Source: Patescibacteria group bacterium UBA4787
Lineage (GTDB): Bacteria > Patescibacteriota > Patescibacteriia > UBA2591 > UBA4787
Direction: 5' to 3'
DNA length: 64,000 nucleotides
NCBI GenBank assembly: GCA_002402995.1
Contig: DHGX01000001.1
Location: 151,073-215,072 of the forward strand
This document shows positions 18,827-62,428 of the stretch, piece after piece. Position 1 is the first letter of the stretch; each line of letters begins with the position of its first letter. Made by a program: the position numbers and the translations under genes. Under the pieces are notes generated by a model that was not told the DNA's origin, did not search any database, and worked only from the letters and a program-made list of their open reading frames with translations.

Positions 18827-18861
18827 TTATCTAATCGAAATTTAAACGCATTTTTGGTTTT

Positions 18862-22190: not shown

Positions 22191-22213
22191 TTTTGCAAAT
22201 TGATTAATTTTTT

Positions 22214-46408: not shown

Positions 46409-48436
46409 ATGTGCGGGATTTTCGGTGTTATCACAAATAAAAATTCAAGTATTTCTTCCGATAATTGCGAAAAGATCATCGGTAGGTTATTTGAATTATC
46501 GGAATCTCGTGGGAAAGAAGCTTCCGGGATCGCAGCTTTCTTAGACAATGAAATCAGGATTTATAAAGAACCGCTTTCCGCTTCGGTGCTAATGCAAACC
46601 AAAAATTATAAAAATTTATTTAATAAAAATAGAATAGATTCTCTTAGTAATAAAGATAAAAGCTTTATTGCTATCGGTCATACACGCCTGGTAACCAACG
46701 GAGTATTGGGTGTTAATGACAATAATCAACCGATTGTTAAAGACGGTTTAGTGGGCGTGCACAACGGTATTATCGTTAACGACGTGGATCTTTGGAAAAA
46801 GTTTCCCTCACTGAAAAGGCGTTATGAAGTTGACACAGAAGTCATTTTAACGCTTATTAGAAAATTCTTAAATGAAGGAATGTCTTTAATTGGGGCGGTA
46901 CAAGAAGCATTTGATTTGATCGACGGCTCTGCTTCAGTGGCTGTTTTATTCAATGATCGCCCAATCATTCTTTTGGCTACTAATACTGGATCTTTGTATG
47001 TTTATCGCAATTCAATAAAAAATATTATCATTTTTGCTTCCGAAAAATATATTTTAAAAAAGCTAATCAGTAAATTCGAAAATTTTTTAAGCGACGGGGA
47101 TCTTTTCCAGGTACATGCCGGAGAGGGCTACTTAATTGATAAAACAGATCTGAAGACAGCCAAATTTTTATTGGCTGGCGATATTTCCGAGAAAGAGAGA
47201 ATAGAAGAAGGTAATATTTTAATAAACCCCAATAACATTATTGATCTGTCATCTTATGAACTTTCTGTCCCAGATGTTCCGGAAATTCAAAATAATTTAA
47301 ATATTATTAAAACATATTCTAATCTTTTTCCTCGCTACGAACAGGCCATTAATGGATTAAGACGCTGCACAAAATGTATTCTTCCGGAGACTTTTCCTTT
47401 TATTAGCTTTGATGAAAAAGGGGTTTGTAATTACTGCCATTCTTACAAAAAGAATGAGCTAAAAGGAGAAGATACATTTCATCAGATAGCTAAACATTAT
47501 AGAAGAAAAAACGACGAACCGGATTGTTTGGTGCCATTTAGCGGCGGACGCGATAGTAGTTACGGACTGCATTATATTAAGAAGGTTTTGAAAATGAATC
47601 CCGTGTCTTATTCTTATGACTGGGGAATGATTACGGACGTTGGAAGAAGGAATCAGGCGAGAATGTGCGCTGAGCTGGGGATTGAGCATATTTTGGTTTC
47701 TGCCGATATCCGCCGAAAAAGAGAAAATATTAGGAAAAATGTAATCGCCTGGCTTAAGCGCCCAGCCTTGGGTATGATTCCTTTATTTATGGCCGGCGAT
47801 AAGCAATATTTCTATTATGCCAATCAGATTAAAAAACAAATGGGTCTTGAGCTTATAATTATGTGCGAAAACGCGCTTGAAAGGACTAATTTTAAGCATG
47901 GGTTTTGCGGCGTCAGACATGCTCGTTCAGACGTTTCCCAATACTTTATGTCATTGTCTGATAAATTAAAATTGGCCGAATATTATGCCGGACAATTTTT
48001 TAAAAATCCCGCATATTTAAATTCTACGACAGTAGATGCTATTTTTGGCTTCATTTCATATTTTTTCATATCGCACAATTATTTATATCCATATCAATTT
48101 ATAAAATGGGACGAAAAAGAAATAATATCTACCCTTGTTGATAATTATGGATGGGAATTCGCGCCGGATAAAAAAATTAGTTGGCGCAACGATGATGGCA
48201 CGGCCCCTTTTTATAATTATATTTATTACAAGGTGGCTGGATTTACGGAAAATGACACCTTTCGCAGTAATCAGATAAGAGAAGAGATGATCTCTCGAGA
48301 AGAGGCATTGGTATTGGCGCGAGACGAAAATCAGCCGCGCCTTGAAGCGATTAAATGGTATTGCGATACGATTGGACTTAATTTCGAGGAAGTTTTAAAG
48401 ATAATAAATTCTATTCCTAATCTTTATAGGTTCTAA
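46409..48436 (+). CDS. fusion of a class-II (Ntn) glutamine amidotransferase domain to a Zn-ribbon/PP-loop N-acetyl-sugar amidotransferase domain
   Basis: The N-terminus MCGIFGV has the Cys2 nucleophile of GATase-2/AsnB-like enzymes. The C-terminal half has CTKCILPETFP...CNYCHSYKK followed by the PP-loop FSGGRDSSY. Its tail (WRNDDGTAPFYNYI...GFTENDTFRSNQIR...KWYCDTIGL) is paralogous to 54217..55305. Confidence 0.6.
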   Translation: MCGIFGVITNKNSSISSDNCEKIIGRLFELSESRGKEASGIAAFLDNEIRIYKEPLSASVLMQTKNYKNLFNKNRIDSLSNKDKSFIAIGHTRLVTNGVLGVNDNNQPIVKDGLVGVHNGIIVNDVDLWKKFPSLKRRYEVDTEVILTLIRKFLNEGMSLIGAVQEAFDLIDGSASVAVLFNDRPIILLATNTGSLYVYRNSIKNIIIFASEKYILKKLISKFENFLSDGDLFQVHAGEGYLIDKTDLKTAKFLLAGDISEKERIEEGNILINPNNIIDLSSYELSVPDVPEIQNNLNIIKTYSNLFPRYEQAINGLRRCTKCILPETFPFISFDEKGVCNYCHSYKKNELKGEDTFHQIAKHYRRKNDEPDCLVPFSGGRDSSYGLHYIKKVLKMNPVSYSYDWGMITDVGRRNQARMCAELGIEHILVSADIRRKRENIRKNVIAWLKRPALGMIPLFMAGDKQYFYYANQIKKQMGLELIIMCENALERTNFKHGFCGVRHARSDVSQYFMSLSDKLKLAEYYAGQFFKNPAYLNSTTVDAIFGFISYFFISHNYLYPYQFIKWDEKEIISTLVDNYGWEFAPDKKISWRNDDGTAPFYNYIYYKVAGFTENDTFRSNQIREEMISREEALVLARDENQPRLEAIKWYCDTIGLNFEEVLKIINSIPNLYRF

Positions 48437-48991: not shown

Positions 48992-49183
48992 TAATTTATT
49001 CCAATAATTATCTGTTTGCGTCGAGAATTGATATGGGCCTAAAGCCTGGCTACCTGCGAGCAATTTGTTCAAGTAAATTATTTTTTATTTAACAAGTTGT
49101 CAAATTAAAAACCCTAATCTGCCAGAATAATCTGGACTTAATTGGTATTATGTGTATAATTTATAAAAGTTAAAAAAGAAATT

Positions 49184-50131
49184 ATGTTCAAAGATAATAA
49201 AATCTCAGTCGTTATACCCGCTTATAATGTAGAAAAATTAATCGGCAGAGTTATTTTAACTATGCCGAATTTTATAGACAAGATGGTGGTGGTTGATGAT
49301 AACAGCACTGATAAAACTAATGAAGTGGTTCAAGGTCTTCAAGGAAACAACAAAAAAATTATTTTAATTAAACACGACAAAAATCAGGGTGTCGGTGGTG
49401 CTATTGCCACGGGTTATAAATGGTCGCGGGATAATGATTTCGATGTCGCCATAGTTATGGCTGGTGATGCTCAAATGGATCCAGATGACCTCCCGCGATT
49501 ATTAGAACCGGTCGTCGGTGGGGAGGTGGAGTACAGCAAAGGCAATCGTCTATCTACAGGAGAAGCTTTTAAAAAAATACCCAGAATTAAATACTTTGGC
49601 AATTCTATCCTTTCGTTTTTGACCAAAATCGCTTCGGGTTATTGGCACGTTACTGATTCCCAGAGTGGTTATACTGCTATTAACAAAAAGGCGTTGAAGA
49701 CCATCGATTGGGCGGAAATGTATAAGCGATATGGTCAACCCAACGACCTACTGGTCAGATTAAATGTTTATAATTTTAAAGTCAGAGATGTGGCTATTAA
49801 CCCGATTTATAATATTGGAGAAAAGTCGGGTATCAAGTTGCGAAGAGAAATTTTTACCATTAGCTGGCTTTTGCTCAAATTATTTATTTGGCGTCTTAGG
49901 GAAAAATATATTATTCGTGATTTTCATCCTTTAGTATTTTTCTACTTTTTGAGCGGTTTATTATCATGCGCGACCGTATTTTTCGTAGTAAGATTGGCTT
50001 GCTTGTGGATTAAAAACGGATATGTTCCGCCGACTACCGCTCTTGTTCTGGTTTTTTGTGCTGTGATGGCCATGCAATCCGGATTTTTTGCTATGTGGTT
50101 TGACATGGAATCAAATAAAAATTTGAAATGA
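49184..50131 (+). CDS. GT2 polyprenol-phosphate glycosyltransferase with C-terminal TM helices (ArnC/GtrB-like)
   Basis: ISVVIPAYNVEK...VVVDDNSTDKT and ...MAGDAQMDP (DxD) are present. Two C-terminal TM helices follow. Confidence 0.7.
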   Translation: MFKDNKISVVIPAYNVEKLIGRVILTMPNFIDKMVVVDDNSTDKTNEVVQGLQGNNKKIILIKHDKNQGVGGAIATGYKWSRDNDFDVAIVMAGDAQMDPDDLPRLLEPVVGGEVEYSKGNRLSTGEAFKKIPRIKYFGNSILSFLTKIASGYWHVTDSQSGYTAINKKALKTIDWAEMYKRYGQPNDLLVRLNVYNFKVRDVAINPIYNIGEKSGIKLRREIFTISWLLLKLFIWRLREKYIIRDFHPLVFFYFLSGLLSCATVFFVVRLACLWIKNGYVPPTTALVLVFCAVMAMQSGFFAMWFDMESNKNLK

Positions 50132-50916
50132 TAGGTTTCGCCCTGCAAACATATACACACTATTTAAGAGCCATAAAGTCTAGTTATCAAAATATATTTA
50201 GGTTTGACGAGTATTTTTTATTAGAGGAAAAACCAGAAAATTTTTGTTTAATCAGGCACGATATTGACAGAAATCCTCGAAATGCCCTTCTAATGGCTGA
50301 GGTCGAAAATAAATTTGGCATTCAGGCTAGTTATTATTTCAGAACCAAACGAATATCTTTTAAGCCCGATATTATTACAAAGATATCAGCTCTAGGCCAT
50401 GAAATAGGTTATCACTATGAATCATTCTCGGATATGGATGGCAATTCAGTTGCGGCATTATTGGATTTCGGGAATAATTTAAAAAAGATTAGAAGGATTG
50501 CACCTGTTAAGACGATATCAATGCACGGTCGGCCATTAAGCCGATTTGATAATCGCGATCTATGGCGTGATTCATTAAATCACTCTTTATTAAAAGACAA
50601 ATTCAACATTTTGGGAGAAATTTATTTAGATATCGATTATACAGACATTGCCTATATTAATGATACTGGAAGAAACTGGTATTCCGACAAATCAAACTTG
50701 AGAGATCGTGTTGATTCTAAAATTAAGATTAATTTCAAAAATAATAATGAATTGTTGGAGTATTTGAGGAACAAGCCACATTCAAAATTAGTTTTTCAAA
50801 TACATCCCGAAAGGTGGAGCAACAACTTAATTGACTGGGTCTATCGGTTTATTGTTGATAATATAGTTCGTTGTCTTAAGGATGTTGTTCGCATTCTGAA
50901 TCAAGGACAAAAATAA
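50128..50916 (+). CDS. ArnD-like polysaccharide deacetylase/deformylase family protein
   Basis: LIRHDIDRNPRNALLMAEVENKFGIQASYYF parallels the ArnD N-terminal motif (RIDVDTFRG...ASFFF). It is translationally coupled to the GT2 gene by an ATGA overlap. Confidence 0.5.
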   Translation: MIGFALQTYTHYLRAIKSSYQNIFRFDEYFLLEEKPENFCLIRHDIDRNPRNALLMAEVENKFGIQASYYFRTKRISFKPDIITKISALGHEIGYHYESFSDMDGNSVAALLDFGNNLKKIRRIAPVKTISMHGRPLSRFDNRDLWRDSLNHSLLKDKFNILGEIYLDIDYTDIAYINDTGRNWYSDKSNLRDRVDSKIKINFKNNNELLEYLRNKPHSKLVFQIHPERWSNNLIDWVYRFIVDNIVRCLKDVVRILNQGQK

Positions 50917-50927
50917 TTTAATTAAAA

Positions 50928-51968
50928 ATGATTGTCAAGTTTTTAGAAAATATCACTCCAAATATCTATAAAGCTATAAAAGGTTTAGAAGGAGTTACAA
51001 TATACCACACAAAAGAATGGCATAATTTTTTGCATAGAACTTTCAATTGGTCGACAAAAGCCATTATTGGTTTAGCGGAAAACGGTGAACTAATTTTCTT
51101 TTTACCTTTTATCTCTAAATGTAGAACAGATTTTAAAAAACATAATATTTCTCTTCCTTTGAGCCACAAGGTCGGTCTAGCGGTTAGAAAAGATTATTTT
51201 CCGAATATAGATTGCATCATCTCGGAAATCAAAAAAATTTTAAATGATATCGAAATACATATAGAAATAAATAGCCCCGACATGGAAATCATTTATTTAT
51301 ACGACGAAACGATACTTGATTTGACCAAATACAAAAATATAGACGAATTATATAGAAATTTGGACTACACGAGCATTCGTTATAGAATTAATAGGGCGAA
51401 AAAAAATAATATAATAATTTCTAATGAATTATCCGAAGAAAATTTTGAGTATTTTTATCGACTAGAGGTTGAAACTAGGATAAGACAAGGAAGTCCAATT
51501 TATCCTAGGAGCTTTTTTAAAAATCTATTATCGTGCCTGAAAGATACTGGATGGTTGTCTATATATATAGCATTTTATAATCGAAAGCCCATATCAGGTT
51601 CCATATTTTTGCATTTTCAAAATCACTCAATTTATGCCTATTCGGCGTCAGTGACAAAAAAAGAAATTAAAAAAATAGGAGCAAATGAATTAATTTTATG
51701 GTCAGGAATTTTAGAGTCTTATTCATTGGGGAAGCAATATTTTGATTTTGGCACGTCTTCTATAGCCCTTCCCAAGTTAAGATTATTTAAGGAAAAATGG
51801 GGCGGAAAGAGTAGGCCGCTTTTATATTCTTATTATACAAAAGGACGCCAGCCTAAGATAATAAGTAGAAGTAGTATAGGCACGAAAATAGCCTCTGTAT
51901 TATTAAAATGGATGCCAAAATCTATTTTTAAAGTCATAGGTCCGTGTTTGTTAAAATTAATAGTGTGA
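50928..51968 (+). CDS. FemAB-like / GNAT-fold (Acetyltransf_6-like) acyl- or aminoacyl-transferase
   Basis: The HTKEWHNFL ... GSIFLHFQNHSIYAYSAS ... ELILWSG pattern resembles the FemX/BioF2-like family. Confidence 0.4.
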   Translation: MIVKFLENITPNIYKAIKGLEGVTIYHTKEWHNFLHRTFNWSTKAIIGLAENGELIFFLPFISKCRTDFKKHNISLPLSHKVGLAVRKDYFPNIDCIISEIKKILNDIEIHIEINSPDMEIIYLYDETILDLTKYKNIDELYRNLDYTSIRYRINRAKKNNIIISNELSEENFEYFYRLEVETRIRQGSPIYPRSFFKNLLSCLKDTGWLSIYIAFYNRKPISGSIFLHFQNHSIYAYSASVTKKEIKKIGANELILWSGILESYSLGKQYFDFGTSSIALPKLRLFKEKWGGKSRPLLYSYYTKGRQPKIISRSSIGTKIASVLLKWMPKSIFKVIGPCLLKLIV

Positions 51969-51994
51969 TTTTTAAAAATCTAAAAGAGGAGATA

Positions 51995-52747
51995 ATGAAC
52001 GAACAAGGCAAACAACAAAAAGCTTTTGACAAATCTATAGGAGCGTATGAATATAAAATGAATTATACTTTTACGGGTATGATCCATCATATTATTAAGG
52101 AAGAAAGTATTAAATTGCTTGATCCACGAGCCGGAGAAAAAATATTAGATATTGGATGCGGATGTGGCGAAATAGCCATAATGGCGGCTGAAAAAGGCGC
52201 AATTGTAAGGGCTTTTGATATTTCTAACGAAAGAATCGCTTTAGCAAAAAAAAGAGCAGAAAACAAGGATTTGGACGTTTCGTTTTATGTTGGCGACTCT
52301 CAAAAAATAAATGAAGAAGAATCTTCTTTTGACAAAGTAATGTGTATCAATGTTGTACACCGTCTTTCTGATCCCGCAAAATGTTTATCAGGCATTTTTA
52401 AAAGTTTGAAGAAGGACGGTTTATTGATTATATTCACAATGAATAATTATTCCCCGCAATTTTTCTTGGTTAAATTTTATTCTAAGATAAGAGATATGAT
52501 TAAAAAACCGCTTTCAGATATAGTCGCGAAAAAGGGGTTTACCTCTTCTCAAATTAGAAATTTACTAGAGAAAAATGGTTTTCGAGTTATTTCTTTAACC
52601 ACAGATATTTTTTGTTTCCCATATTTTCCGACATATTGCCCAAAAATTGTTAATTGGTTTTTAAAAAAGATGGATTGTCTCTTCAAAAAAACACCTCTTG
52701 TTAACAAATTAGGCGCTTTAATAAAAATTGAGGTAATCAAAAAATAA
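51995..52747 (+). CDS. class I SAM-dependent methyltransferase (start moved to the Met preceded by AGGAG)
   Basis: Motif I ILDIGCGCGEIA is present. A strong Shine-Dalgarno aaagaggag lies 6 nt upstream of the ATG at 51995. The track ORF starts earlier, at 51944. Confidence 0.6.
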   Translation: MNEQGKQQKAFDKSIGAYEYKMNYTFTGMIHHIIKEESIKLLDPRAGEKILDIGCGCGEIAIMAAEKGAIVRAFDISNERIALAKKRAENKDLDVSFYVGDSQKINEEESSFDKVMCINVVHRLSDPAKCLSGIFKSLKKDGLLIIFTMNNYSPQFFLVKFYSKIRDMIKKPLSDIVAKKGFTSSQIRNLLEKNGFRVISLTTDIFCFPYFPTYCPKIVNWFLKKMDCLFKKTPLVNKLGALIKIEVIKK

Positions 52748-52751
52748 AAAA

Positions 52752-54188
52752 ATGACTAAAATCCTTATCATAGGTCTTACTGCTGGCCCGGCAGGTTTGA
52801 TGGAGCGACAAGCAGGGAATATGGCCATATTTATCTCTACACTTAAGATATTAAAAGATGTAATTCCTGATGTGCAAATTTCAACTAGTTTACAATTGTC
52901 AGAGGATTTTTGTAATCGTTACGGGCTCGTAAGTTTAAAGCACAGATCGTTTTATGAACCGAATTTTCGTTCCGGTTTAATATCGTTATTGGATTATATG
53001 CGAAGTGGCTTATGGTATTTTTTCAAAAAGAAAATTAAACTAGATGTTAAATTTTTAATAAAAGGAGTCAGACTGAAGGAGCTTATAAGATCGGATATGA
53101 TTATTGATTTTAGCGGAGACATGTATGGAGATAATGGCCACCCTCTCCATCTATTAAAGCATTCGTTAGACATGTTAACAGCCAGACTATTAGAAAAGCC
53201 TGTTTTTATGTTTGCCCAGTCGCCGGGACCATTTACAAAAAAGCTCAGACTATTTTTCGCAAAATATGTTTTAAATAAAGTATCTTTGATTACTACCAGG
53301 GAGCCGTGGAGTTATGAGATTCTAAAGCGCAGCGGTATTAATAAGGCGCTAATTATTAAAACCGCCTGTCCTGCATTCTTGTTACCGTCCTCATCCAAAG
53401 AAAAAATAGAAAAAATCCTCAAAGAAGAAAGTATTAAGGTAAATTTTCCGCTAGTCGGAATAAATATATGTGGATGGAATTTTATTCATGACAGATACAA
53501 AGAGCACAGAGAAGATAAAGAATTGATGCCCTTAGTTGTCGTTATTAAATATTTGTTGGAAAAATTAAAAATAAACGTACTTTTAATCCCCCATGTTTTT
53601 CGCACAGATAAATCTGGAAAATTAATTCACGGACCAGACACAAAAATAATAGAACAACTTTATCGAATATTAGATAATGATAGGAGTAGATACGGAGATA
53701 GACTTAAAATATTAAAGGGAATTTATGAGTCATCCGAGATAAAAGGAATAATAGGACGGTGTAATTTATTTATTAGCGGAAGGATACATGCTGGTGTTGC
53801 CGCATTATCACAAAATATTCCAACCATATTATTGGCTTATGCTTATAAGCATTATGGATTTGCCAGATTGGTTGGCCAAGAAAGATATGTTTCTAATAAT
53901 TTTGGCGGGAAAATAAACGCCCAAGACGTTATTTCTAAAATAGAAGATGTTTGGAATAATAAAGAAAAAATATCTTTAGAAATAAAAAACAAGATGCCGA
54001 GAGTAAGACAACTTGTTTTACTTAATGCCACCATCACCAAAGAAATAATAGATTTAATTAAAAGGGGCGAGAAAAGTATACCCTCCGAAACAATAAATTC
54101 ATGGCTTGAGAGAGGAGATCAAGAAGGTGTCGGTTCATATTTTGACGAAACAATAAAGAGGATAGATGAAATCCCCGAACTTTATTAA
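52752..54188 (+). CDS. polysaccharide pyruvyl transferase family protein (CsaB/WcaK-like)
   Basis: An N-terminal ILIIGLTAG...GNMAI region and the C-terminal LFISGRIHAGVAALSQNIPTILLAYAYK both match pyruvyl-transferase motifs. Confidence 0.45.
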   Translation: MTKILIIGLTAGPAGLMERQAGNMAIFISTLKILKDVIPDVQISTSLQLSEDFCNRYGLVSLKHRSFYEPNFRSGLISLLDYMRSGLWYFFKKKIKLDVKFLIKGVRLKELIRSDMIIDFSGDMYGDNGHPLHLLKHSLDMLTARLLEKPVFMFAQSPGPFTKKLRLFFAKYVLNKVSLITTREPWSYEILKRSGINKALIIKTACPAFLLPSSSKEKIEKILKEESIKVNFPLVGINICGWNFIHDRYKEHREDKELMPLVVVIKYLLEKLKINVLLIPHVFRTDKSGKLIHGPDTKIIEQLYRILDNDRSRYGDRLKILKGIYESSEIKGIIGRCNLFISGRIHAGVAALSQNIPTILLAYAYKHYGFARLVGQERYVSNNFGGKINAQDVISKIEDVWNNKEKISLEIKNKMPRVRQLVLLNATITKEIIDLIKRGEKSIPSETINSWLERGDQEGVGSYFDETIKRIDEIPELY

Positions 54189-54216
54189 TATTTAGTTCAT
54201 AACAAAGTAAAATATT

Positions 54217-55305
54217 ATGAAAATTTGTAGTAAATGTATCTTGCCAGAGTCTTTTCCCATGATTAGGTTTGATAAGAATGGAGTTTGTAATTATTGCCTC
54301 GATTATAAAAAAATTATTGTTAAGGGGGGGGACGAATTAGAAAAGATTTTAAATAAATTTCGAAATCAAGGCTGTGATTTTGACTGTGTTGTTGGATCTG
54401 GCGGAGGCAGAGATAGCGCATATGTGATACACCAATTAGTAAAAAAATATAAAATGCGAGTTTTGATGTTCACTTATGATTGGGGATTAATGACACCAGA
54501 AGCACATAGAAATCTGGAGCGAATTTCTAAAATTTTAAATATAAAACACGTTATCATCAGACCTAACGCCGAAAAGATAAAAAAACACATATCTATTAAT
54601 ATAAAAGTGTGGCTTAGGAGGCCGCAGCTTGGTATGATACCCGTTTTTACAATGGCTGATAAAGCGATGGGGGTTCAGATGAATAAAGTTGCTAGAAAAT
54701 ACGGAATTAAATTAATAGTGAGCGGAACTAATCGTTATGAAACAACGCATTTCAAAACCGCCTTTTGTGGTATCAACGAAACAAGGCTTGGCGGAATGAC
54801 TTCGGCTCAACTCGCGAATATAGATAAAATAAAATTATTATTTTTTTATTTTTCTCAATACATTAAAAATCCAAGATATATTAACTCTTCGCTTGTCGAG
54901 ATGATAAAATCGTTTTTTTATCACTATTTCGCCAACCATTCAAAGGATATAATTAAAATATTCTTTTATGATTATATCATGTGGGACGAAAACACGGTTT
55001 TATCTATCATAAGAAAAGATTTAAATTGGGAAGCTCCCAAAGATACAACCATGACATGGCGAACCGACGATGGTACGGCAGCTTTTTATAATTATATTTG
55101 TTATATGGTGGCTGGTTTTACTGAAAACGACACATTCAGAGGCAACCAAATTCGCCAAGGAATTCTTACCAGAGAAGAGGTTTTTATATTATTAAAAGAA
55201 GAAAATAAGCCTAGATTTGAATCCATAAAATGGTATTGTGATACTATTGGTATTGATTTTGAAAGCACAATAAAAACAATAAATGAAATATCAAAATTTT
55301 ACTAA
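54217..55305 (+). CDS. PP-loop N-acetyl-sugar amidotransferase (stand-alone paralog of the C-terminal half of 46409..48436)
   Basis: The zinc ribbon CSKCILPESFP...CNYCLDYKK is present. The PP-loop is GSGGGRDSAY. The C-terminus WRTDDGTAAFYNYI...GFTENDTFRGNQIR...KWYCDTIGI is shared with the fusion protein. Confidence 0.55.
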   Translation: MKICSKCILPESFPMIRFDKNGVCNYCLDYKKIIVKGGDELEKILNKFRNQGCDFDCVVGSGGGRDSAYVIHQLVKKYKMRVLMFTYDWGLMTPEAHRNLERISKILNIKHVIIRPNAEKIKKHISINIKVWLRRPQLGMIPVFTMADKAMGVQMNKVARKYGIKLIVSGTNRYETTHFKTAFCGINETRLGGMTSAQLANIDKIKLLFFYFSQYIKNPRYINSSLVEMIKSFFYHYFANHSKDIIKIFFYDYIMWDENTVLSIIRKDLNWEAPKDTTMTWRTDDGTAAFYNYICYMVAGFTENDTFRGNQIRQGILTREEVFILLKEENKPRFESIKWYCDTIGIDFESTIKTINEISKFY

Positions 55306-55360
55306 ATTTAAAAAATATAGAATAGCGTCGGACATATCATAGCGCAAAATAAACAGGTTT

Positions 55361-55990
55361 ATGGATAAATTTAATCTAAAAAATTTAAATACCAATAGGC
55401 GCTGGGATTATCATACACAAGAATACCACAGTGGCAATCCAATAACCCAATTCCTTTTTAATTTTTTTTATAAAAAACTAGAAGAAGCCCTAATGGTGCT
55501 TAAGAGTGGCGACAAAATACTTGAAGTGGGTTGTGGAGCAGGAGAGTCTTCTTTGAGAATAAAGCGTATGCTTAAGGATCAATATTTTGAGGTATCAGAT
55601 ATAGACGAGTACTATATTAACAAATTAAAAGATAAAAATTTTTCTTTACCGGTATCTCAAGAGTCTGTTTATGATTTAAAAAGGGGCGATAACGAATTCG
55701 ACTGCATTTTATTTTTAGAAGTTTTGGAGCATCTCAAAAATCCAGAGTGCGCACTCCAAGAATTATTTAGAGTCTCCAGAAAATATGTTATTCTCTCTGT
55801 TCCCAACGAACCACTTTGGCGATTTTTAAATTTATTAAGAGGAAAATTTATCACTTCCCTGGGTAACACGCCCGCTCACGTTAATCACTGGTCGGTAAGC
55901 GAAATAAGCGATCTTGTTTCTCGGCACGGTAAGATTATTAAATTATATAAACCCATTCCGTGGATTATTATTATTGCAGAAAAGGAATAA
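55361..55990 (+). CDS. class I SAM-dependent methyltransferase
   Basis: Motif I ILEVGCGAGESS is present, and ILFLEVLEHL follows. Confidence 0.55.
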   Translation: MDKFNLKNLNTNRRWDYHTQEYHSGNPITQFLFNFFYKKLEEALMVLKSGDKILEVGCGAGESSLRIKRMLKDQYFEVSDIDEYYINKLKDKNFSLPVSQESVYDLKRGDNEFDCILFLEVLEHLKNPECALQELFRVSRKYVILSVPNEPLWRFLNLLRGKFITSLGNTPAHVNHWSVSEISDLVSRHGKIIKLYKPIPWIIIIAEKE

Positions 55991-56113
55991 AATAGATTCA
56001 TTTTAAGGGTTTTTACTCAATGAATAATTAAAAAATTTTAATAACAGTAAGATAGAAGACGTAGACTTAATCAACAAACCATATATAATCTATAAGATAT
56101 TAAAAAGATAATT

Positions 56114-57100
56114 ATGTTTAAAAATAATAAAATTTCAGTAGTGATACCAGCCTACAACGAAGAAAAGTCAATTGCTTCGGTTATTTTAACCGTGCCGAGC
56201 TTCGTTGATCATGTCCTTGTAGTAAATGATGGGTCAACCGACCAAACAACTGAAATCGCCAAAGAGAGGGGGGCTATATTAATAAATCATGTAATCAACA
56301 AGGGGGTGGGAGCGGCCTTTCGTAGTGGCGTTAGAAAATCTTTGGAATTAAATTCAGATATCATGGTGAATATGGATGCCGACGGGCAATTTAATTCAGA
56401 GGACATTACTAAGCTTATTGAACCGATAATCGAAAAACGGGCTGATTTTGTCACTGCTTCAAGATTCAAGAATCCCGATTTTTATCCGCAAATGTCAAGA
56501 ATCAAATTTATAGGCAATAGGTTGATGTCCTGGTTAATTAGTAATTTGGTTGGTCAAAAATATTATGACGTTTCCTGCGGATTTAGGGCTTATTCAAAAG
56601 AGGCGCTATTGAGACTTAATTTATTCGGTGAATTTACTTATACCCAAGAAACATTTTTAGATTTGGCTTTTAAAGGGATGTCTATTGTTGAGGTCCCGGT
56701 TTTGGTCAGAGGAACAAGAGAATATGGCCAATCTAAAGTAGCTTCTAATTTATTTAATTATACATATCAGACCTTAAAAATTATATTGAGAACCCTAAGG
56801 GATTATAGAATTTTTAAAGTTTTTTCTTTTATCTCGTCATTTTTTCTTTTGATTGGTGTAGTTTTTGGATCATTTTCTCTTATTTATTATTTACGTTTCA
56901 ACTTTTTTTCTCCGTATAAATGGGTTGCCTTTGCCGCTGGTTTTTCCATCTTATTCTCGCTTTTAACCATAATGGCCGGCTTTATAATTGATATATTTTC
57001 CCGAATTAGATATAACCAAGAGGAGACTCTCTATCAAATTAAAAAAATAATTTTTTTAAAAAATAATCAAAGAGTAGATACCCCCGATTATAAATTATAA
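56114..57100 (+). CDS. GT2 polyprenol-phosphate glycosyltransferase with C-terminal TM helices (paralog of 49184..50131)
   Basis: ISVVIPAYNEEKSI...VVNDGSTDQT and ...NMDADGQ are present. Two C-terminal TM helices follow. Confidence 0.7.
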   Translation: MFKNNKISVVIPAYNEEKSIASVILTVPSFVDHVLVVNDGSTDQTTEIAKERGAILINHVINKGVGAAFRSGVRKSLELNSDIMVNMDADGQFNSEDITKLIEPIIEKRADFVTASRFKNPDFYPQMSRIKFIGNRLMSWLISNLVGQKYYDVSCGFRAYSKEALLRLNLFGEFTYTQETFLDLAFKGMSIVEVPVLVRGTREYGQSKVASNLFNYTYQTLKIILRTLRDYRIFKVFSFISSFFLLIGVVFGSFSLIYYLRFNFFSPYKWVAFAAGFSILFSLLTIMAGFIIDIFSRIRYNQEETLYQIKKIIFLKNNQRVDTPDYKL

Positions 57101-57101
57101 G

Positions 57102-59399
57102 ATGATCCACGCCATTAAGATAAAACCACAAAGAATATCAGAAATTTTAGTATTTTTTTTGTTGATTGGTTTATATATTTATAATATAACTAAATATTTT
57201 TGGACATTGCCGACACCAAGCGATCCGCTTGAGTATTTAGGTTCGGCAGCCTGGGGGACTGCCTATGGATTCTGGCCCTTTCTCGCCCGCTTAGCTTTAG
57301 CCGTTAACCTAAGAATTTTCGTTCTATTGTTCTCCAAGGCCTATTTTGCGGGAATGTTCTATATCGGTTTTATCAACACCGCCATCTTAATTGTGGCCAT
57401 GCTTTGGGCTTTTAGAAAGTCAGGATTCTGGGCAGCTTTATTCGTCGGTATTTTCATGAACTCTTCTTATCTGATGCTCGGCTGGGCTACCTATATTTAT
57501 CCGGATCAAACCGTCGCCCTTTATTCGTTGTTGGCGTTTATTTGTTTCTTTTCGGAGTTTAAAATTTATCGTTTCATTAACGGGACTTTTCTGGCAGGTT
57601 TTTTTACTGGACTCGCCATACTTTCTAAGGCTACGGGTTTTGGTATATTGCTGTTTTTTGTTATATATCTTATTTATAAAAAAGAATGGAGGAAAATAAA
57701 ACAATTTGCTATTGGTCTGTTTATTGGACTGACCATTGTCGTGTTCTTGTTCTGTCTTTTGTATAATTACCAGTCTTTTTTAGATGCTTTTGTGGAATTT
57801 TTTTATGGTTCGCTAGGGCGTAATTTGGCAAAAATTTATACTAATTTAGGTGCAGGATATTTTCACGAGATCATTTCATCAATAAAATACTTTCCATTTG
57901 TCGCACTATTTATTTTAATCGGCGCTTATAAAAATCAGAAAACCAAGAATTTATTATTCTTGGCTTGGTTCAATATTTTTTTGGTTTATCTTTTAAGGTC
58001 TTCGGCACCTTCTATCCCAACCTATATTTATACTGCTTATATTTTTACTGTTTTAGGAGTATCTATCTATTTAGCCGATGTTTTTGTGTCGAAACAGAGC
58101 AATCGACCAATAGTCAATTTGTCAATTTTGCGTAAATACAGTTTTGTTTTATTTTTTATAATCGTGCTTATTTTAATGGTCGTTGGTCTGCGATTGGGCA
58201 TTAAATATCATTCCGTAGAAAATTATGACTATAGCTATAACTATTTGAAGCCGCTTGATATTTACGAAACAACTAGTTTCCCATACCCTAATATTATAAA
58301 AATATTATATACTTTTATACCCATTCTGCTTTTAGTTTGTTTATTGGGGATTGAGATTCTGAGGCGAAAGATCTTTATTGTTTTATTTATTATTTTGACT
58401 GCTTTCGGCTCCTCTTTTTTCAATGGCGGCCTTGCTTATCAAAAGGCGAAGTATGACAGAGAACGGGCAGATTTTTTCTATAGAACCGCCCCAATTTTAA
58501 ATTTAGTAAAAGACAAAACCTTTAGTGTTTACGTCGAAGCCTGGAACCAGCAATCTTATTCCAATCGGCTCTTGTGGGTCTATCGTTTATTTTTTGACAA
58601 TAAATATCAAAGAGTTTTCAAAGATCAATACAAAGCGCAAAAATTAAACGCCGACGAGATCGAAAGTAGTATAATTTATATAGACAAAGAAAACGATATT
58701 TTGTCAAAAGCCAAGAATGGACGAATCTTGACTGATCGTCCGGATATAGTCCATAAATATTTTCCTTCCGCCATAGAGGTACAGAGGTTGACAGAATTTA
58801 ATAATTTAAGAGATTTGGTCGTGCTTGATATTTCTTCACAGTATTCTATAAAGAAGACGGTTAAATTTTTATTCCAAGAAGATTTTTCAAAATGGCCGAA
58901 CGAGACTAAGAAATTTAGTTCCTCTGAAATAGAGAAAATTTTGCCCCCGCTTAAAATATTGGGTTTAAGGGGGAATCATTTCAAATTTTTGCGGCAAAAT
59001 TCAGGAGAAGATAATTATGTCAGGATTAATTTGAATAAAATAAATAACAGAGAAAAACCAGAAATTAATCTTGGTTATATTGTTAGCCTCCTAGAAATTT
59101 TAGAAAAAGACAAAAACCAACCATTATTTGTCACCCTTGAGGTGGTGGCACGAACTTCTGCTAATCAAAAGAATCAACCCCCCTTTATTTTTATTCAAGA
59201 CAAGGTTAATGAGGACTGGGATTTGACTAAGATTAATATGCCGGGAGATAGATGGGGAGAATACGTTGCAACTAAAAAATTAAGAGACGGCGCTAAAGAT
59301 TTTTTGGCTGGTATAGGATTTTTGCCAAGTTCCGTAGAGAGCTATTTAGACGTTAAAAGCATAAAAATATCCGTTTGGTCTGTGGCTGACAACAAATAA
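57102..59399 (+). CDS. large GT-C-fold membrane glycosyltransferase (ArnT/PMT-like) with a C-terminal extracytoplasmic domain of about 350 aa
   Basis: It has about 12 TM helices followed by a soluble domain. It is translationally coupled to the GT2 gene (TAAgATG). Confidence 0.4.
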   Translation: MIHAIKIKPQRISEILVFFLLIGLYIYNITKYFWTLPTPSDPLEYLGSAAWGTAYGFWPFLARLALAVNLRIFVLLFSKAYFAGMFYIGFINTAILIVAMLWAFRKSGFWAALFVGIFMNSSYLMLGWATYIYPDQTVALYSLLAFICFFSEFKIYRFINGTFLAGFFTGLAILSKATGFGILLFFVIYLIYKKEWRKIKQFAIGLFIGLTIVVFLFCLLYNYQSFLDAFVEFFYGSLGRNLAKIYTNLGAGYFHEIISSIKYFPFVALFILIGAYKNQKTKNLLFLAWFNIFLVYLLRSSAPSIPTYIYTAYIFTVLGVSIYLADVFVSKQSNRPIVNLSILRKYSFVLFFIIVLILMVVGLRLGIKYHSVENYDYSYNYLKPLDIYETTSFPYPNIIKILYTFIPILLLVCLLGIEILRRKIFIVLFIILTAFGSSFFNGGLAYQKAKYDRERADFFYRTAPILNLVKDKTFSVYVEAWNQQSYSNRLLWVYRLFFDNKYQRVFKDQYKAQKLNADEIESSIIYIDKENDILSKAKNGRILTDRPDIVHKYFPSAIEVQRLTEFNNLRDLVVLDISSQYSIKKTVKFLFQEDFSKWPNETKKFSSSEIEKILPPLKILGLRGNHFKFLRQNSGEDNYVRINLNKINNREKPEINLGYIVSLLEILEKDKNQPLFVTLEVVARTSANQKNQPPFIFIQDKVNEDWDLTKINMPGDRWGEYVATKKLRDGAKDFLAGIGFLPSSVESYLDVKSIKISVWSVADNK

Positions 59400-59463
59400 T
59401 TTAATTTAGTCAAACTCAGGAAATTTCTATTCATAATTTTGCGCGATTATCATAATATAAAAT

Positions 59464-60585
59464 ATGTCCAAAATTATTTCTTTTGTTTTTAATGATTTTA
59501 CTAACGACCTCAGAGTTTTAAAAGAAAACATTTCTTTAAAAAATGCTGGTTTTAAGATGACAGTAGTTGCGACTCTTGAATCGGGTTTAAAAAAGCTGGA
59601 ATTTGTCAAAGATTTAGAGGTGCATAGAATAAAAGTCAATTATATCAAAGCTTTGCCGATTCAACTATTTTTTTACTGGATAAAATGCATTGTAAAATAC
59701 AGAAAAGAGGCCATATTTCATTGCAACGATCTTTACGCCTTACCTATAGGCGTATTTATTAAAATATTTTTTAATAAAAAAGCTAAAGTGGTTTATGATT
59801 GTCATGAGTATGAAACCGAGGCTCATATTTATGATGGCAGGAAGTGGCTGAAAATAGCTGCTAAAATCTCCGAAAGATTGTTGATAAGATATTGCGACGA
59901 AGTTATTACTGTCAGTGAGTCGATTGCCAACGAATATCAAAGATTATATAAAATAAAAAAACCAACCTTAGTTCTGAATTGTCCGCGTTTTCAGAAATAC
60001 GAAAAAAAAGATTTATTTCGGCAGAAATTTGGAATAAAACCAGAGACAAAAATAGTTTTATTCCAAGGAGAATATAGAAAGGGAAGAGGGCTAGAAATTA
60101 TGATAGAGGCCTTCAAGAAATTAAATGATAAAAATTTGGCTTTAGTTTTTCTTGGTTATGGGGCTCTCACTAATTTTGTAAAACAAGAAACAATGTCGTC
60201 TTCTAATATATATGTGCACGAAACGGTTAGCCTCGACGTCTACATGGACTATATTTGTTCGGCCGATTTCGGAATTCATATTATGGAGAATACTTGTCTG
60301 AATCATTATTACGCTCTTCCGAACAAACTTTTTGAATATATTATGGCCGGACTGCCGGTGATTGTTTCTAATTTGTACGAAATGAAAAGATTTGTTGAAA
60401 AATATAACGTCGGCATAGTTTTGCATGAAAATAATGTTGCCTCGCTTCTGGAAGTTTTAAATAAAATTAACAGTCTTGATTTAACGATTGTTCGAGAGAA
60501 CACCCAAAAAGTCGCCCAAGTTTATAATTGGGGAAATCAAGAAATAACCCTGATTAATTTATATAAAAATTTAGTTCAAAAATAA
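59464..60585 (+). CDS. GT4 (group 1) glycosyltransferase
   Basis: The C-terminus EYIMAGLPVIVSNLYEMKRFVEKYNVGIV is the GT4 E-x7-E/acceptor-site region. Confidence 0.55.
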   Translation: MSKIISFVFNDFTNDLRVLKENISLKNAGFKMTVVATLESGLKKLEFVKDLEVHRIKVNYIKALPIQLFFYWIKCIVKYRKEAIFHCNDLYALPIGVFIKIFFNKKAKVVYDCHEYETEAHIYDGRKWLKIAAKISERLLIRYCDEVITVSESIANEYQRLYKIKKPTLVLNCPRFQKYEKKDLFRQKFGIKPETKIVLFQGEYRKGRGLEIMIEAFKKLNDKNLALVFLGYGALTNFVKQETMSSSNIYVHETVSLDVYMDYICSADFGIHIMENTCLNHYYALPNKLFEYIMAGLPVIVSNLYEMKRFVEKYNVGIVLHENNVASLLEVLNKINSLDLTIVRENTQKVAQVYNWGNQEITLINLYKNLVQK

Positions 60586-60623
60586 ATAATATCGGACAAA
60601 GAAGAGATTGTACGATCAATATA

Positions 60624-61526
60624 ATGACTGACGAAGTTTTGTTTAAAAATTACATCATACCCGAAATCCCGCGAGGGAAAAATTTTTTGATTTGGCTAAG
60701 CCACGACGTAGACAGGGTTCAAAAGACAATATTTCATTCTATCTATTATTTTTTTAAAGAAAGGAAATTCAGCCACTTGCAAGACATTTTTTCTAAAAAT
60801 AATCCTTATTGGAATTTCGATCGTATAATGGCGCTGGAAGGGCAATATAATGCCAAATCAACCTTTTTCTTTTTAAACGAAACAATGAAGGCTGATATTC
60901 TTCAACCTAAGTCGTATATTTTAGCGAAAGGAAGATATGATATTACCAGCCCGAAAATTAAACAGATAATCAAAGCCATTGATAAAAATGGCTGGGAAGT
61001 GGGCTTGCATGGTTCATATCAGTCTTTTTTAGATAAAGAGCTTCTAACGAGAGAAAAACGAACACTTGAAGAAGTGATTGGCCACGAAATAGGCGGCATT
61101 AGGCAGCATTATTGGAATAATGTTATTCCCAAAACCTGGGCGATTCAAAGATCGATCGGTTTAAAATATGACGCAACGTTCGCGACAAAAGATGATATTG
61201 GTTTTCGCGAAAATATTTATTATCCGTTTAGGCCATTTGATGACGATTTTTTGGTGATACCAACGGTTATCATGGAATATTATTTGTTTAATAAAGCTGA
61301 CGGAAATGTTGATGTGGCCAAGAAGATGATTAACGATCTTATTGATTTTTGTAAAAACAAGAGGGCCGTATTTTCGGTTTTATGGCATCCACATTTTATA
61401 AATCCTAAAGAATTTCCCGATCTTTATAATCTTTACGAATATTTATTAAAAAGAGCCAGCGAGGAAGGTGGCTATTTTATCACTCCAAAAAATTTATTAT
61501 CAAGCGAACGAGTGAAATGGAAATAA
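60624..61526 (+). CDS. ArnD-like polysaccharide deacetylase/deformylase family protein (paralog of 50128..50916)
   Basis: The protein has NFLIWLSHDVDRVQ...AKSTFFFLNE. Its last 9 codons and stop lie inside repeat copy D. Confidence 0.5.
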   Translation: MTDEVLFKNYIIPEIPRGKNFLIWLSHDVDRVQKTIFHSIYYFFKERKFSHLQDIFSKNNPYWNFDRIMALEGQYNAKSTFFFLNETMKADILQPKSYILAKGRYDITSPKIKQIIKAIDKNGWEVGLHGSYQSFLDKELLTREKRTLEEVIGHEIGGIRQHYWNNVIPKTWAIQRSIGLKYDATFATKDDIGFRENIYYPFRPFDDDFLVIPTVIMEYYLFNKADGNVDVAKKMINDLIDFCKNKRAVFSVLWHPHFINPKEFPDLYNLYEYLLKRASEEGGYFITPKNLLSSERVKWK

Positions 61527-61594: not shown

Positions 61595-62428
61595 ATGTCG
61601 GAAGAAATTAAAAAATATCATTGTTCTGTTTGCGACACAGACTCTTTGACTTTGTTGAAACATACAGGTGATGCTAAAATATATAAATGCCTAAAATGCG
61701 GATCTACGATTAAAACAACGTCTCCAGAAGAGGATCAGGTTCGTATTTCTACGGCCGATTATGTTAAACAAGAGCTCAGAGACGAATATTCTAGAAAGAG
61801 AAAAAATTATCATCAATATATTTATGATTTGATTTTTAAATTTTCTGGGAAAAGGCATGGCTCAGTTTTAGATATCGGGGCCAATTATGGCCAACTACTA
61901 GAAATTTTTCAAAAAAACGGATGGGAAACATTTGGTATAGAGCCAAATGTTAAATGTTTGACGCAAATGAAAGAAAATGACATAAGCGCCTATGCGCAGA
62001 TAGATGACTTGATGGATGATGAAAATTACCGCAATAAAGCTTTCGACGCCATTACTTTTATAGATGTTTTGTATTATATAGATGATCCTATCAAATTATT
62101 AACTAAGTGTTATAATATTCTAAAGCCGGGCGGAATTATTTTGTTACGCACCTATCACAGGTCATATTTATTATTTTTAAGATTTTTCTTTAAAAATATT
62201 GTAAATCTCGTATATGGTGATTCAAAAATAGATTTTAGTATTAAGGGTTTATTCTTATTGGGGCAGATTACTGGTTTCAAGAAAGACAATATCACTATTT
62301 TTAGCGAACCGGGTTATATAAGAAAAGAGGGTGGTTTGCGATTAATTTATGATATTTTTCGAATTTTTAGATTAAACAATATTTTGGGTCCCGGTATTAT
62401 TACAATCATGAAGAAGAGCAATTCTTAG
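61595..62428 (+). CDS. SAM-dependent methyltransferase with N-terminal Cys4 zinc ribbon
   Basis: The zinc ribbon CSVCDTDS...CLKCGST is followed by motif I VLDIGANYGQL. Confidence 0.55.
   Translation: MSEEIKKYHCSVCDTDSLTLLKHTGDAKIYKCLKCGSTIKTTSPEEDQVRISTADYVKQELRDEYSRKRKNYHQYIYDLIFKFSGKRHGSVLDIGANYGQLLEIFQKNGWETFGIEPNVKCLTQMKENDISAYAQIDDLMDDENYRNKAFDAITFIDVLYYIDDPIKLLTKCYNILKPGGIILLRTYHRSYLLFLRFFFKNIVNLVYGDSKIDFSIKGLFLLGQITGFKKDNITIFSEPGYIRKEGGLRLIYDIFRIFRLNNILGPGIITIMKKSNS

Follow-up and report, generated by a model that had tools for sequence, protein, structure and literature searches.

The question raised by positions 49184-61526 of a 64,000-nucleotide (nt) stretch of DNA from Patescibacteria group bacterium UBA4787 is whether the glycan genes found there form a pathway resembling the Arn system, in which an amino sugar is carried by polyprenol phosphate, deacylated and handed over outside the membrane. 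The whole stretch is called the window here, all coordinates refer to it, and the span is the part from 49184 to 61526. Polyprenol-phosphate-linked amino sugars are donors for envelope changes that affect surface charge and resistance to cationic peptides, such as the addition of 4-amino-4-deoxy-L-arabinose (Ara4N) or galactosamine (GalN) to lipid A and of GalN to arabinogalactan. A first-pass annotation of the DNA had described the span as recapitulating the logic of the Arn pathway, with a DegT aminotransferase, two membrane-anchored GT2 enzymes, two ArnD-like CE4 deacylases and a 765-amino-acid (aa) ArnT-like GT-C enzyme. The open reading frames (ORFs) that it named all exist in the window, as seen from the ORF list and the translations, and the logic can be retained; membership in the Arn families cannot, since no curated Arn cut-off is reached, and neither ArnA (formyltransferase / UDP-GlcA decarboxylase) nor ArnE/F was found among the scanned window ORFs. 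In the reading developed here, to which we give an even chance, the span serves a surface-polysaccharide cluster as its arm for extracytoplasmic decoration, using a carrier-linked amino sugar whose N-acyl group is edited at the level of the carrier. Such a module would point to a broadly distributed relative of the known systems, with another deacetylase family that has no Pfam model, an added re-acylation step and probably a UPF0104 flippase.

ORFs were assigned to families by Pfam and NCBIfam profile scans against curated cut-offs, and transmembrane helices were located by a hydropathy scan. The core of the module is CE4_1 (50128-50916, + strand), an unannotated protein of 262 aa without transmembrane helices, which carries RHDIDR at residues 43-48 and is a predicted sugar N-deacetylase of the CE4 (NodB)-fold amidohydrolases. 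It has no match to any Pfam family. On profile and motif evidence it is a member of a large uncharacterised CE4-like family of bacteria and archaea, with at least 1774 homologs (the best 120 being 53-60% identical) and at least 595 loci in GTDB species genomes, where the best representative match is 58% identical; the matches of a profile search with E <= 1e-30 make up at least 519 clusters at the 50% identity level. Across the 120 sequences, R43, H44, D45, D47 and R48, H91, E92, Y95 and H96, H133 and G134, and H226, P227, E228 and W230 are invariant, and D45, H91 and H96 align with motif residues of PgdA. The AF2 model (predicted local distance difference test score, pLDDT, 88.7) has the NodB fold, and its best Foldseek matches are the CE4 enzymes BA3943, PdaC, PgdA and PdaA, all of them weak (E 1e-4 to 1e-3, template-modelling scores 0.37-0.58). 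Searches of the PDB by sequence with CE4_1, with the second deacetylase-like protein, CE4_2, and with the GT-C protein (including a profile search for CE4_1 only) gave nothing significant, and the fold search alone was informative.

The designation of CE4_1 and CE4_2 as ArnD-like is accurate for their motifs only. Both ORFs exist with the reported RHDIDR and SHDVDR sequences, the invariant Asp/His motifs are kept in both families, and in a direct alignment the DxD and HExGxH regions of ArnD, CE4_1 and CE4_2 line up, ExGxH being common to all. Membership in the ArnD family finds no support in the profiles: in the Pfam and NCBIfam scans the ArnD family gave no match at E <= 0.01 for either protein, the CE4_1 family aligned with E. 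coli ArnD at an hhalign probability of 3.9%, and the ArnD structure 8T0J, which is present in the PDB, was not one of the 50 best structures that Foldseek returned for the CE4_1 model.

CE4_1 is preceded by GT2_1 (49184-50131, + strand; 315 aa; Glycos_transf_2 1.5e-25; transmembrane helices at 251-269 and 279-297), a predicted polyprenol-phosphate amino-sugar synthase, and a second enzyme of this kind, GT2_2 (56114-57100, + strand; 328 aa; Glycos_transf_2 7e-26; helices at 233-251 and 277-295), a predicted polyprenol-phosphate sugar synthase, precedes the GT-C gene. The two are 31% identical, and both have the architecture of polyprenol-phosphate sugar synthases, namely a GT-A-type GT2 domain followed by C-terminal transmembrane helices, in agreement with the original assignment to an ArnC/GtrB-like class. 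The best named NCBIfam matches are AglJ (4.7e-17) and PpgS (1e-14) for GT2_1, and AglJ (3.3e-35), PpgS (1.2e-27) and ArnC (8.7e-18) for GT2_2; the best PDB sequence matches are an archaeal DPMS (1.6e-12) and ArnC (3.4e-13, over the full length including the transmembrane region), respectively. The scores of GT2_2 and GT2_1 against the ArnC equivalog NF007986 are 64.4 and 33.3 bits, for a cut-off of 529 bits, and GT2_2 shares 25% identity with the E. coli ArnC protein. By their architecture the two proteins are best regarded as paralogs within the class of polyprenol-phosphate sugar synthases, not as Arn orthologs. The stop codon of GT2_1 overlaps the start of CE4_1 (ATGA), and that of GT2_2 lies 1 nt ahead of the GT-C start, a layout consistent with translational coupling within each pair.

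The two GT2 genes also resemble each other in their 5' regions. A promoter-like site, GACTTAAT-N12-TATAAT, which is a consensus match only, occurs ahead of GT2_1 (49135-49160, + strand) and ahead of GT2_2 (56064-56089, + strand); these are its two occurrences in the window, against 0.02 expected, and each lies about 25 nt before the start codon. The coding sequences are 74% identical in the first 90 nt and 50% identical in nt 91-156, and an alignment of the 62 nt upstream of both genes was no better than shuffles.

Evidence that GT2_1 and CE4_1 belong together comes from other genomes. Neighbourhoods were counted for the best 80 of the at least 595 GTDB loci with CE4_1 relatives (labelled L011-L090), the neighbouring genes being assigned by ORF calling, phmmer, clustering and Pfam scans. 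The bacterial members of this set belong to Bacteroidota, Planctomycetota, Lentisphaerae, KSB1, Desulfobacterota, Chloroflexota, Thermotogota, Campylobacterota, Cloacimonadota and Verrucomicrobiota, and the archaeal ones to methanogens and one uncultured Halobacteria metagenome-assembled genome. In 14 of the 80 loci a GT2_1-like gene directly adjoins the CE4_1 relative, often overlapping it, and in 9 of these 14 the GT2 is 54-64% identical to GT2_1; a nearly adjacent pair is also present in an archaeon (Methanosarcina, L043). A DUF354 gene (GT-B clan) lies in 47 of the remaining 66 loci, within three genes of CE4_1 in 40 of them, and only two loci combine DUF354 with an adjoining GT2_1-like gene. 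In a neighbour-joining tree the GT2-partnered CE4_1 members group together, apart from the DUF354-partnered ones.

Several loci extend the pair towards a complete set. In two Desulfobacterota (L024 and L037) a PMT-type GT-C gene, a GT2_1 ortholog, CE4_1 and a hexapeptide acyltransferase occur together, with a confirmed UPF0104 gene in L024. L005 combines a PMT-type GT-C gene, a GT2_1 ortholog (57% identity), DUF354, an epimerase, a CE4_2 homolog, a methyltransferase and UPF0104. In L021 and L083 a hexapeptide transferase follows CE4_1 and the GT2_1-like gene is about 2.7 kb upstream. The supposition that the genes form a linked module is supported by these loci: orthologs of GT2_1 adjoin CE4_1 or CE4_2 homologs in other phyla, and three loci have a PMT-type GT-C as well. 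The presence of CE4_1 relatives in methanogens and in the Halobacteria genome also means that lipid A is not the general acceptor of such modules. The first-pass annotation had presumed that this organism lacks lipid A, and a search of the scanned window ORFs brought up neither lpx nor outer-membrane genes.

DUF354, an uncharacterised family of the GT-B clan, is the commonest immediate neighbour of the CE4_1 relatives in L011-L090; it is also found beside CE4_2 relatives (L005-L007) and is fused to CE4_1 in P0354. It gave no PDB or NCBIfam match, and a literature search for it returned unrelated work only.

The enzyme set originally listed for the span was correct for the genes named, apart from the placing of DegT, and missed six others, encoding a FemAB/Acetyltransf_6 protein, two methyltransferases, a pyruvyl transferase, a WbuX amidotransferase and a GT4, as well as UPF0104 downstream. 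Two of the missed genes bear directly on the pathway. Directly after CE4_1 lies the gene for a FemAB/GNAT-type, VimA-like acyl- or aminoacyl-transferase (50928-51968, + strand; no transmembrane helices; Acetyltransf_6 2.3e-8), which matches TIGR03019 pepcterm_femAB over its full length (1.4e-23; 83.5 bits, cut-off 260) and adjoins CE4_1, not CE4_2. A FemAB/Acetyltransf_6 gene also directly follows GT2_1-CE4_1 in L001, L002/L012, L014 and L017, and this conservation implies re-acylation of the freed amine, the predicted role of the FemAB-like protein. The second is the UPF0104 / LPG_synthase_TM membrane protein (63030-64000, + strand), a candidate flippase for lipid-linked sugars, whose gene is cut by the window end. 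The full gene was recovered from the identical metagenome contigs L091 and L092 (L091 5473-6444), where the N-terminus is the same as in the window copy; it matches PF03706 LPG_synthase_TM at 8.2e-13 (48.9 bits, above the cut-off of 33.4), and homologs recur in the related clusters L001, L002, L005, L022, L024 and L094.

The 765-aa protein (57102-59399, + strand) has an ArnT-like membrane core with at least 11 transmembrane helices, a soluble domain and a C-terminal beta-sandwich resembling carbohydrate-binding modules (CBMs). The multi-helix core agrees with the GT-C superfamily, and so does a near-invariant Asp (D41) in the first loop after the first transmembrane helix, since members of the superfamily conserve an acidic residue in their first external loop. 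In a Foldseek search with the AF2 model (pLDDT 85, predicted template-modelling score 0.79) the top match was Cupriavidus ArnT (5F15; E 6.7e-9, template-modelling score 0.55 normalised to ArnT), followed by EmbC, ALG12, AftD, Pmt4 and AglB; no Wzy or WaaL structure was among the listed matches. The description of the protein as ArnT-like is therefore sound for the fold and fails for sequence orthology, the hhalign probability of its family against E. coli ArnT being 3.5%. The comparison of the family with PMT-type GT-C was likewise not significant, the Pfam match to PMT_2 (E 0.0015, 19.2 bits) is under the cut-off of 26.1, and NCBIfam gave no match. All of the 24 homologs found are metagenomic. 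ArnT, EmbC, ALG and PMT enzymes use polyprenol-phosphate-linked sugar donors. The C-terminal part matches CBM16, CBM4 and CBM22 modules over about 150-195 alignment columns in Foldseek, which suggests, on the strength of the model, that the acceptor is a glycan chain, as for EmbC and AftD.

The surroundings of the GT-C homologs are those of polysaccharide clusters, with Wzx-type (Polysacc_synt), Wzy_C and Bac_transf genes. A GT4 gene lies directly downstream of the GT-C homolog in L008 and L093, UPF0104 directly upstream in L094, and GATase-WbuX or WbuX genes are found nearby.

CE4_2 (60624-61526, + strand), a protein of 300 aa without transmembrane helices and with SHDVDR at residues 26-31, belongs to the polysaccharide-deacetylase family in a WbmS/VimE-like form. 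Its best named match is NCBIfam VimE (NF053580; 7e-17; 61.1 bits, cut-off 440), with an alignment that spans positions 161-428 of the 431-position profile, a model to which CE4_1 has no match; it also matches Polysacc_deac_1 weakly (E 0.0056). The homologs, annotated as polysaccharide deacetylases in bacteria and haloarchaea, carry PF22537 WbmS-like or PF01522, and the residues H27, D28 and D30, E125 and H129, and R160, Q161 and H162 are invariant. The CE4_2 family is a remote relative of ArnD, aligning with the E. coli protein over 152 columns (hhalign probability 90.7%, E 1.2e-6).

A duplication of the deacylase, from which two different sugars or acceptors had been deduced, is not what the window contains. 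The CE4_1 and CE4_2 profiles align over 74 columns only (hhalign probability 92.7%), and the idea of duplicated deacetylases was rejected in favour of two different CE4-like families. In L027 (Thermosipho), L081 (Methanolobus), L072 and L042, relatives of both families lie no more than 10 kb apart, an arrangement like that of the window, and this co-occurrence suggests two different deacetylation steps rather than redundancy.

From these elements we infer the following route. A Gfo-type oxidoreductase, the DegT aminotransferase, a 2-epimerase and the WbuX amidotransferases, most of them encoded upstream of the span, would build a modified amino or diamino hexose on the nucleotide. GT2_1 and GT2_2 would load the sugar on polyprenol phosphate at the cytoplasmic face of the membrane. 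CE4_1 would then take off the N-acetyl group and the FemAB-type enzyme would add a different acyl group, probably an aminoacyl group, and CE4_2 would perform a second, different de-N-acetylation. The UPF0104 protein would flip the lipid-linked sugar, and the ArnT-fold GT-C would hand it to an acceptor outside the membrane. The most specific form of this proposal, in which a CE4-fold family edits the N-acyl group of a carrier-bound amino sugar, the FemAB-type enzyme adds an amino acid, possibly in an aminoacyl-tRNA-dependent manner, and UPF0104 and the GT-C deliver the product to a surface polymer, is offered as a speculation that is rather unlikely to be right in all its parts. If the route in general is confirmed, it would provide a function for a large family of 'hypothetical' proteins and clarify the role of UPF0104 in glycan clusters.

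The point at which deacetylation occurs is a delicate part of the scheme. By analogy with the Arn, NaxD and PpgS systems we slightly prefer an order in which the sugar is first transferred to the carrier and then deacetylated; the reverse order, with deacetylation of the nucleotide sugar, is nearly as likely. The carrier-level order is favoured by the partner-specific CE4_1 subfamilies and by the fusions of CE4_1 homologs to glycosyltransferases, the domains found fused to them being DUF354, GT4, Bac_transf and Formyl_trans_N. If it is correct, the synthesis of envelope glycans would include a new tailoring step that takes place on the carrier, and a module of this kind, once confirmed, would be a test system for the site of sugar N-acyl editing, a question shared with the Vim pathway of Porphyromonas gingivalis.

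A number of observations weigh against this scheme. The known substrates of sugar N-formyltransferases and hexapeptide N-acetyltransferases are nucleotide sugars, so that the CE4_1 fusions and adjacencies that involve such enzymes point to deacetylation at the nucleotide level; the adjacency of UDP-GlcNAc 2-epimerase or WbuX amidotransferase genes to CE4_1 homologs in many loci, and the affinity of CE4_2 for VimE, which is its closest named family and is named by NCBI a UDP-sugar deacetylase, point in the same direction. The first-pass claim of deacylation on the carrier is therefore not sustained as it stood, because the formyltransferase fusion and the VimE/WbmS affinity fit nucleotide sugars equally well. 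GT2_1 and GT2_2 reach no curated NCBIfam cut-off of any polyprenol-phosphate sugar synthase family, and their donor sugar and lipid acceptor are consequently read from architecture alone. CE4_2 has Trp at the first His of the HExGxH motif, unlike ArnD and CE4_1, which may mean a different metal site in CE4_2. In L024 the hexapeptide protein resembles an O-acetyltransferase rather than an N-acyltransferase. Finally, the adjacency of GT2_2 and GT-C is absent in each of the four other GT-C contexts covered, where the nearby GT2 genes differ.

The best-surviving alternative takes up the first of these objections. CE4_1 and CE4_2 would deacetylate a UDP-linked acetamido or diacetamido sugar in the cytoplasm, the FemAB-like enzyme would add an amino acid, and only then would glycosyltransferases act, as in the Wbp/Vim pathway of P. 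gingivalis and Tannerella forsythia (VimE, VimA and the GT4 VimF); the finished sugar would go to polyprenol phosphate through the GT2s or to the repeat unit, so that a GT2/GT-C branch may still exist. We consider this a serious possibility, at clearly less than even likelihood. In that pathway an acetamido sugar is likewise deacetylated and provided with an amino acid by a FemAB/TIGR03019-type enzyme; the proposal is that a CE4 enzyme deacetylates the sugar and that a TIGR03019-type enzyme adds Ser or Gly (PMC7468200). The window offers a match of CE4_2 to VimE, a UDP-2,3-diacetamido-2,3-dideoxyglucuronate deacetylase, a FemAB-like protein matching the family that VimA also matches (PMC7468200), a GT4 adjoining CE4_2, and Wbp-type Gfo oxidoreductase, DegT and 2-epimerase genes upstream. 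In other genomes CE4_2 homologs sit among WbpB-, WbpD- and WbpE-like genes, and Veith et al. report pairs of a deacetylase and a VimA-like protein in PEP-CTERM and Wbp loci (PMC7468200).

The resemblance is nevertheless incomplete. Neither protein is an ortholog, the scores being well under the cut-offs given above, and the deacetylase next to the FemAB-like gene is CE4_1, which represents a different, unannotated family. WbpB-like and WbpE-like genes are present in the window, and neither a WbpA-type UDP-GlcNAc 6-dehydrogenase, which would open the uronic-acid branch, nor a WbpD-type hexapeptide acetyltransferase was found among its scanned ORFs. The substrate level of VimE and VimA is itself only proposed (PMC7468200). 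The window adds a membrane-anchored GT2, a GT-C and UPF0104, and the Vim-like scheme leaves unexplained why CE4_1 subfamilies track the type of their partner glycosyltransferase and why CE4_1 is fused to glycosyltransferases.

It might also be argued that the genes merely share a location, in a mosaic cluster of the O-antigen or capsule type where the GT2s serve as repeat-unit glycosyltransferases in the cytoplasm, the membrane protein of 765 aa is polymerase- or ligase-like and no common pathway exists. The Wzy-like and Wzz-like genes and the many tailoring enzymes of the cluster agree with this, as do the Wzx-type, Wzy_C and Bac_transf genes around the GT-C homologs and the lack of conservation of the GT2_2-GT-C adjacency. 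We find it improbable, given that the pairing of GT2_1 and CE4 recurs across phyla with GT2 orthologs of 54-64% identity and often with overlapping genes, that sets including a GT-C exist in L005, L024 and L037, and that the fold matches of the 765-aa protein are ArnT, EmbC, ALG and PMT enzymes, with no Wzy or WaaL structure among those listed.

Quite improbable, too, is a third alternative, which concerns the 3' part only. There, GT4, CE4_2 and UPF0104 could be a route to a cationic membrane glycolipid, independent of the GT2s and the GT-C: the GT4 would put an N-acetylhexosamine (HexNAc) on a membrane lipid, CE4_2 would deacetylate it and UPF0104 would flip it. The gene order GT4, CE4_2, two methyltransferases, UPF0104 recalls that of GpgSDF, which makes glucosaminyl (GlcN)-phosphatidylglycerol in P. 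aeruginosa by means of a synthase, a deacetylase and a UPF0104/MprF-like flippase acting on lipid-linked HexNAc; GpgS is a GT4, GpgD a predicted deacetylase (COG3233) that acts after glycosyl transfer to the membrane lipid, and GpgF a UPF0104 protein and predicted flippase (PMC12713373). HexSDF, which makes an aminohexosyl glycolipid in C. difficile, follows the same synthase, deacetylase and flippase pattern (PMC10128005). The window GT4 weakly matches the GlcNAc-phosphatidylglycerol synthase model (2.2e-10), and CE4_2 has a faint DUF2334 match (E 0.0093). Against this, the GT4 scores 39.9 bits for a GlcN_PG_synth (NF053787) cut-off of 480, and other GT4 families score better; neither it nor the deacetylase is an ortholog of GpgS or GpgD. 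A polysaccharide cluster surrounds the genes, and two methyltransferases separate CE4_2 from UPF0104. In other genomes the CE4_2 homologs are found not in three-gene lipid operons but in glycan loci of the Wbp type, together with DUF354, a GT2 and a GT-C, and the position of the GT4 right after the GT-C is kept in polysaccharide clusters with Wzx-type genes.

The literal Arn pathway, in which L-Ara4N would be made, receive a formyl group, be attached to undecaprenyl phosphate, lose the formyl group through ArnD and be moved to lipid A by ArnT, is so improbable as to be effectively refuted: the enzyme classes are the same (DegT, GT2, CE4-like, GT-C), ArnT is the top fold match of the GT-C and ArnC the best PDB sequence match of GT2_2, but the ArnB and ArnC scores are far below their cut-offs, ArnD gives no match, the scanned ORFs lack ArnA and ArnE/F, CE4_1 relatives occur in archaea and the GT-C family shows no significant alignment with E. 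coli ArnT.

With carrier-level editing retained as the preferred reading, its relation to the known systems can be specified. What is shared with Arn is that polyprenol phosphate would receive an N-acylated amino sugar from a GT2, a deacylase of the NodB type would act on this sugar and a GT-C would transfer it outside the membrane. The differences are that FemAB-type re-acylation and a UPF0104 flippase candidate are found in place of ArnA and ArnE/F, that the GT-C has a CBM-like domain, and that lipid A is not the acceptor in general, no gene of the window being an Arn ortholog.

The PpgS/Rv3632/Rv3779 and FlmF2/NaxD/FlmK systems are similar in that a GT2 makes polyprenyl-phosphate-HexNAc, the final sugar has a free amine and a GT-C acts on a wall polymer or on lipid A. 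Both window GT2s have PpgS among their best NCBIfam matches, with scores (96.8 and 54.5 bits) far under its 370-bit cut-off. NaxD is a YdjC-family protein and not a CE4 enzyme, and neither system is known to include a re-acylation step. The GtrA/B/C, CsbB/GtcA/YfhO and GacI/J/L systems decorate a polymer outside the membrane with a GT2 that has C-terminal transmembrane helices and a GT-C. The window has the same pairing of GT2 and GT-C, with deacetylase and acyltransferase steps added and without a GtrA-type small flippase seen in the span, where every + strand ORF of at least 80 aa was assigned. Of the systems with a free amine, PpgS/Rv3779 places GalN on arabinogalactan from polyprenyl-phosphate-GalNAc (PMC3485146), and NaxD is required for GalN on lipid A (PMC7911091).

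The span is part of a glycan cluster of at least 26 kb on the + strand, from about 37.7 kb to past the window end, in a bacterial window that encodes RecA, FtsK, RpoB/C, GyrA, PBP1A and MurE. After recA the order is: a short-chain dehydrogenase/reductase (SDR) epimerase, a Wzz-like gene, a Gfo oxidoreductase, DegT, a methyltransferase, a UDP-GlcNAc 2-epimerase, a Wzy-like polymerase, a PaaK-like AMP ligase, a GATase-WbuX fusion, a methyltransferase, the genes of the span, two further methyltransferases and UPF0104. The Wzz/TuaF-like chain-length determinant (38774-39610, two transmembrane helices) matches NCBIfam TuaF at 4.6e-9 and other chain-length determinant families, and is the sole member on the - strand. 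The Gfo/Idh/MocA oxidoreductase (39790-40629, +) would perform a WbpB-like 3-oxidation of the sugar (inositol 2-dehydrogenase 1.4e-16; UDP-GlcNAc 3-dehydrogenase 1.4e-7). It is followed by the DegT/DnrJ/EryC1 sugar aminotransferase (40629-41816, +; Pfam DegT 7.4e-133), which scores 301.6 bits for PseC (cut-off 423.5) and 252.4 bits for ArnB (cut-off 631); the gene reported as an ArnB-type member of the span thus exists, 7 kb outside it.

The 2-epimerase (42585-43685, +) is of the non-hydrolysing WecB/WbpI type (TIGR00236 wecB, 316.5 bits, above the cut-off of 210), and the Wzy-like repeat-unit polymerase (43718-45049, +) has about 11 predicted transmembrane helices and scores 37.3 bits for TIGR04370 (cut-off 40). 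The PaaK/F390-synthetase-like AMP-dependent ligase (45059-46393, +; NCBIfam DVU_1553 family 1e-41) is a possible activator of acyl groups, with homologs near CE4_1 relatives in 6 of the 80 loci. The fusion of a glutamine amidotransferase with a WbuX-type N-acetyl-sugar amidotransferase (46409-48436, +; GATase_7 6e-13; WbuX 7.8e-39 over residues 319-666), predicted to make an acetamidino group, has homologs beside both CE4_1 and GT-C relatives.

Within the span, the FemAB-like gene is followed by an S-adenosylmethionine (SAM)-dependent methyltransferase (51944-52747, +; Methyltransf_31 6.4e-23), a polysaccharide pyruvyl transferase (52752-54188, +; PS_pyruv_trans 1.3e-38; CsaB 2.8e-19), a second WbuX-type N-acetyl-sugar amidotransferase, lacking the GATase domain (54217-55305, +; TIGR03573 WbuX 2.8e-46), and another SAM-dependent methyltransferase (55361-55990, +; Methyltransf_23 2.9e-13). 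The GT4 (59464-60585, +; GT-B; Glycos_transf_1 4.4e-13; no transmembrane helices) lies between the GT-C and CE4_2, and CE4_2 is separated from UPF0104 by two SAM-dependent methyltransferases (61595-62428, +, Methyltransf_23 6.1e-20; 62443-63018, +, Methyltransf_23 1.1e-13). The methyltransferase ORF at 51944 is listed with a GTG start and shares its first 25 nt (51944-51968) with the end of the FemAB-like gene; translation may in fact begin at an in-frame Met that lies 17 codons further on (MNEQGK...).

The glycan cluster starts directly 3' of recA (36649-37668 and downstream). In P. gingivalis, vimA-vimE-vimF is also found downstream of recA, a likeness that is probably a coincidence.

Elsewhere in the window, a second possible polyprenol-phosphate sugar set lies at 20237-23881 (- strand) and resembles a Ppm1-type synthase flanked by GT-C-like membrane proteins. 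It consists of a multi-helix membrane protein of 555 aa (22214-23881, -), a GT2 of 241 aa without transmembrane helices (21465-22190, -; Glycos_transf_2 4.6e-31) and another multi-helix membrane protein of 432 aa (20237-21535, -), both membrane proteins being without a Pfam match. An Rfam scan of the window returned only two tRNAs; tRNA-Ile with the anticodon TAT, an uncommon isoacceptor in bacteria, is encoded at 855-931 (-). At 17111-19320 (+) lie four paralogous small proteins that share the motif GG..WMTSGG. Three of them match T4SS_pilin/TrbC, the fourth (18862-19320) being assigned by the motif only, and one paralog also has a PG_binding_1 domain; T4SS_pilin arrays are common in Patescibacteria.

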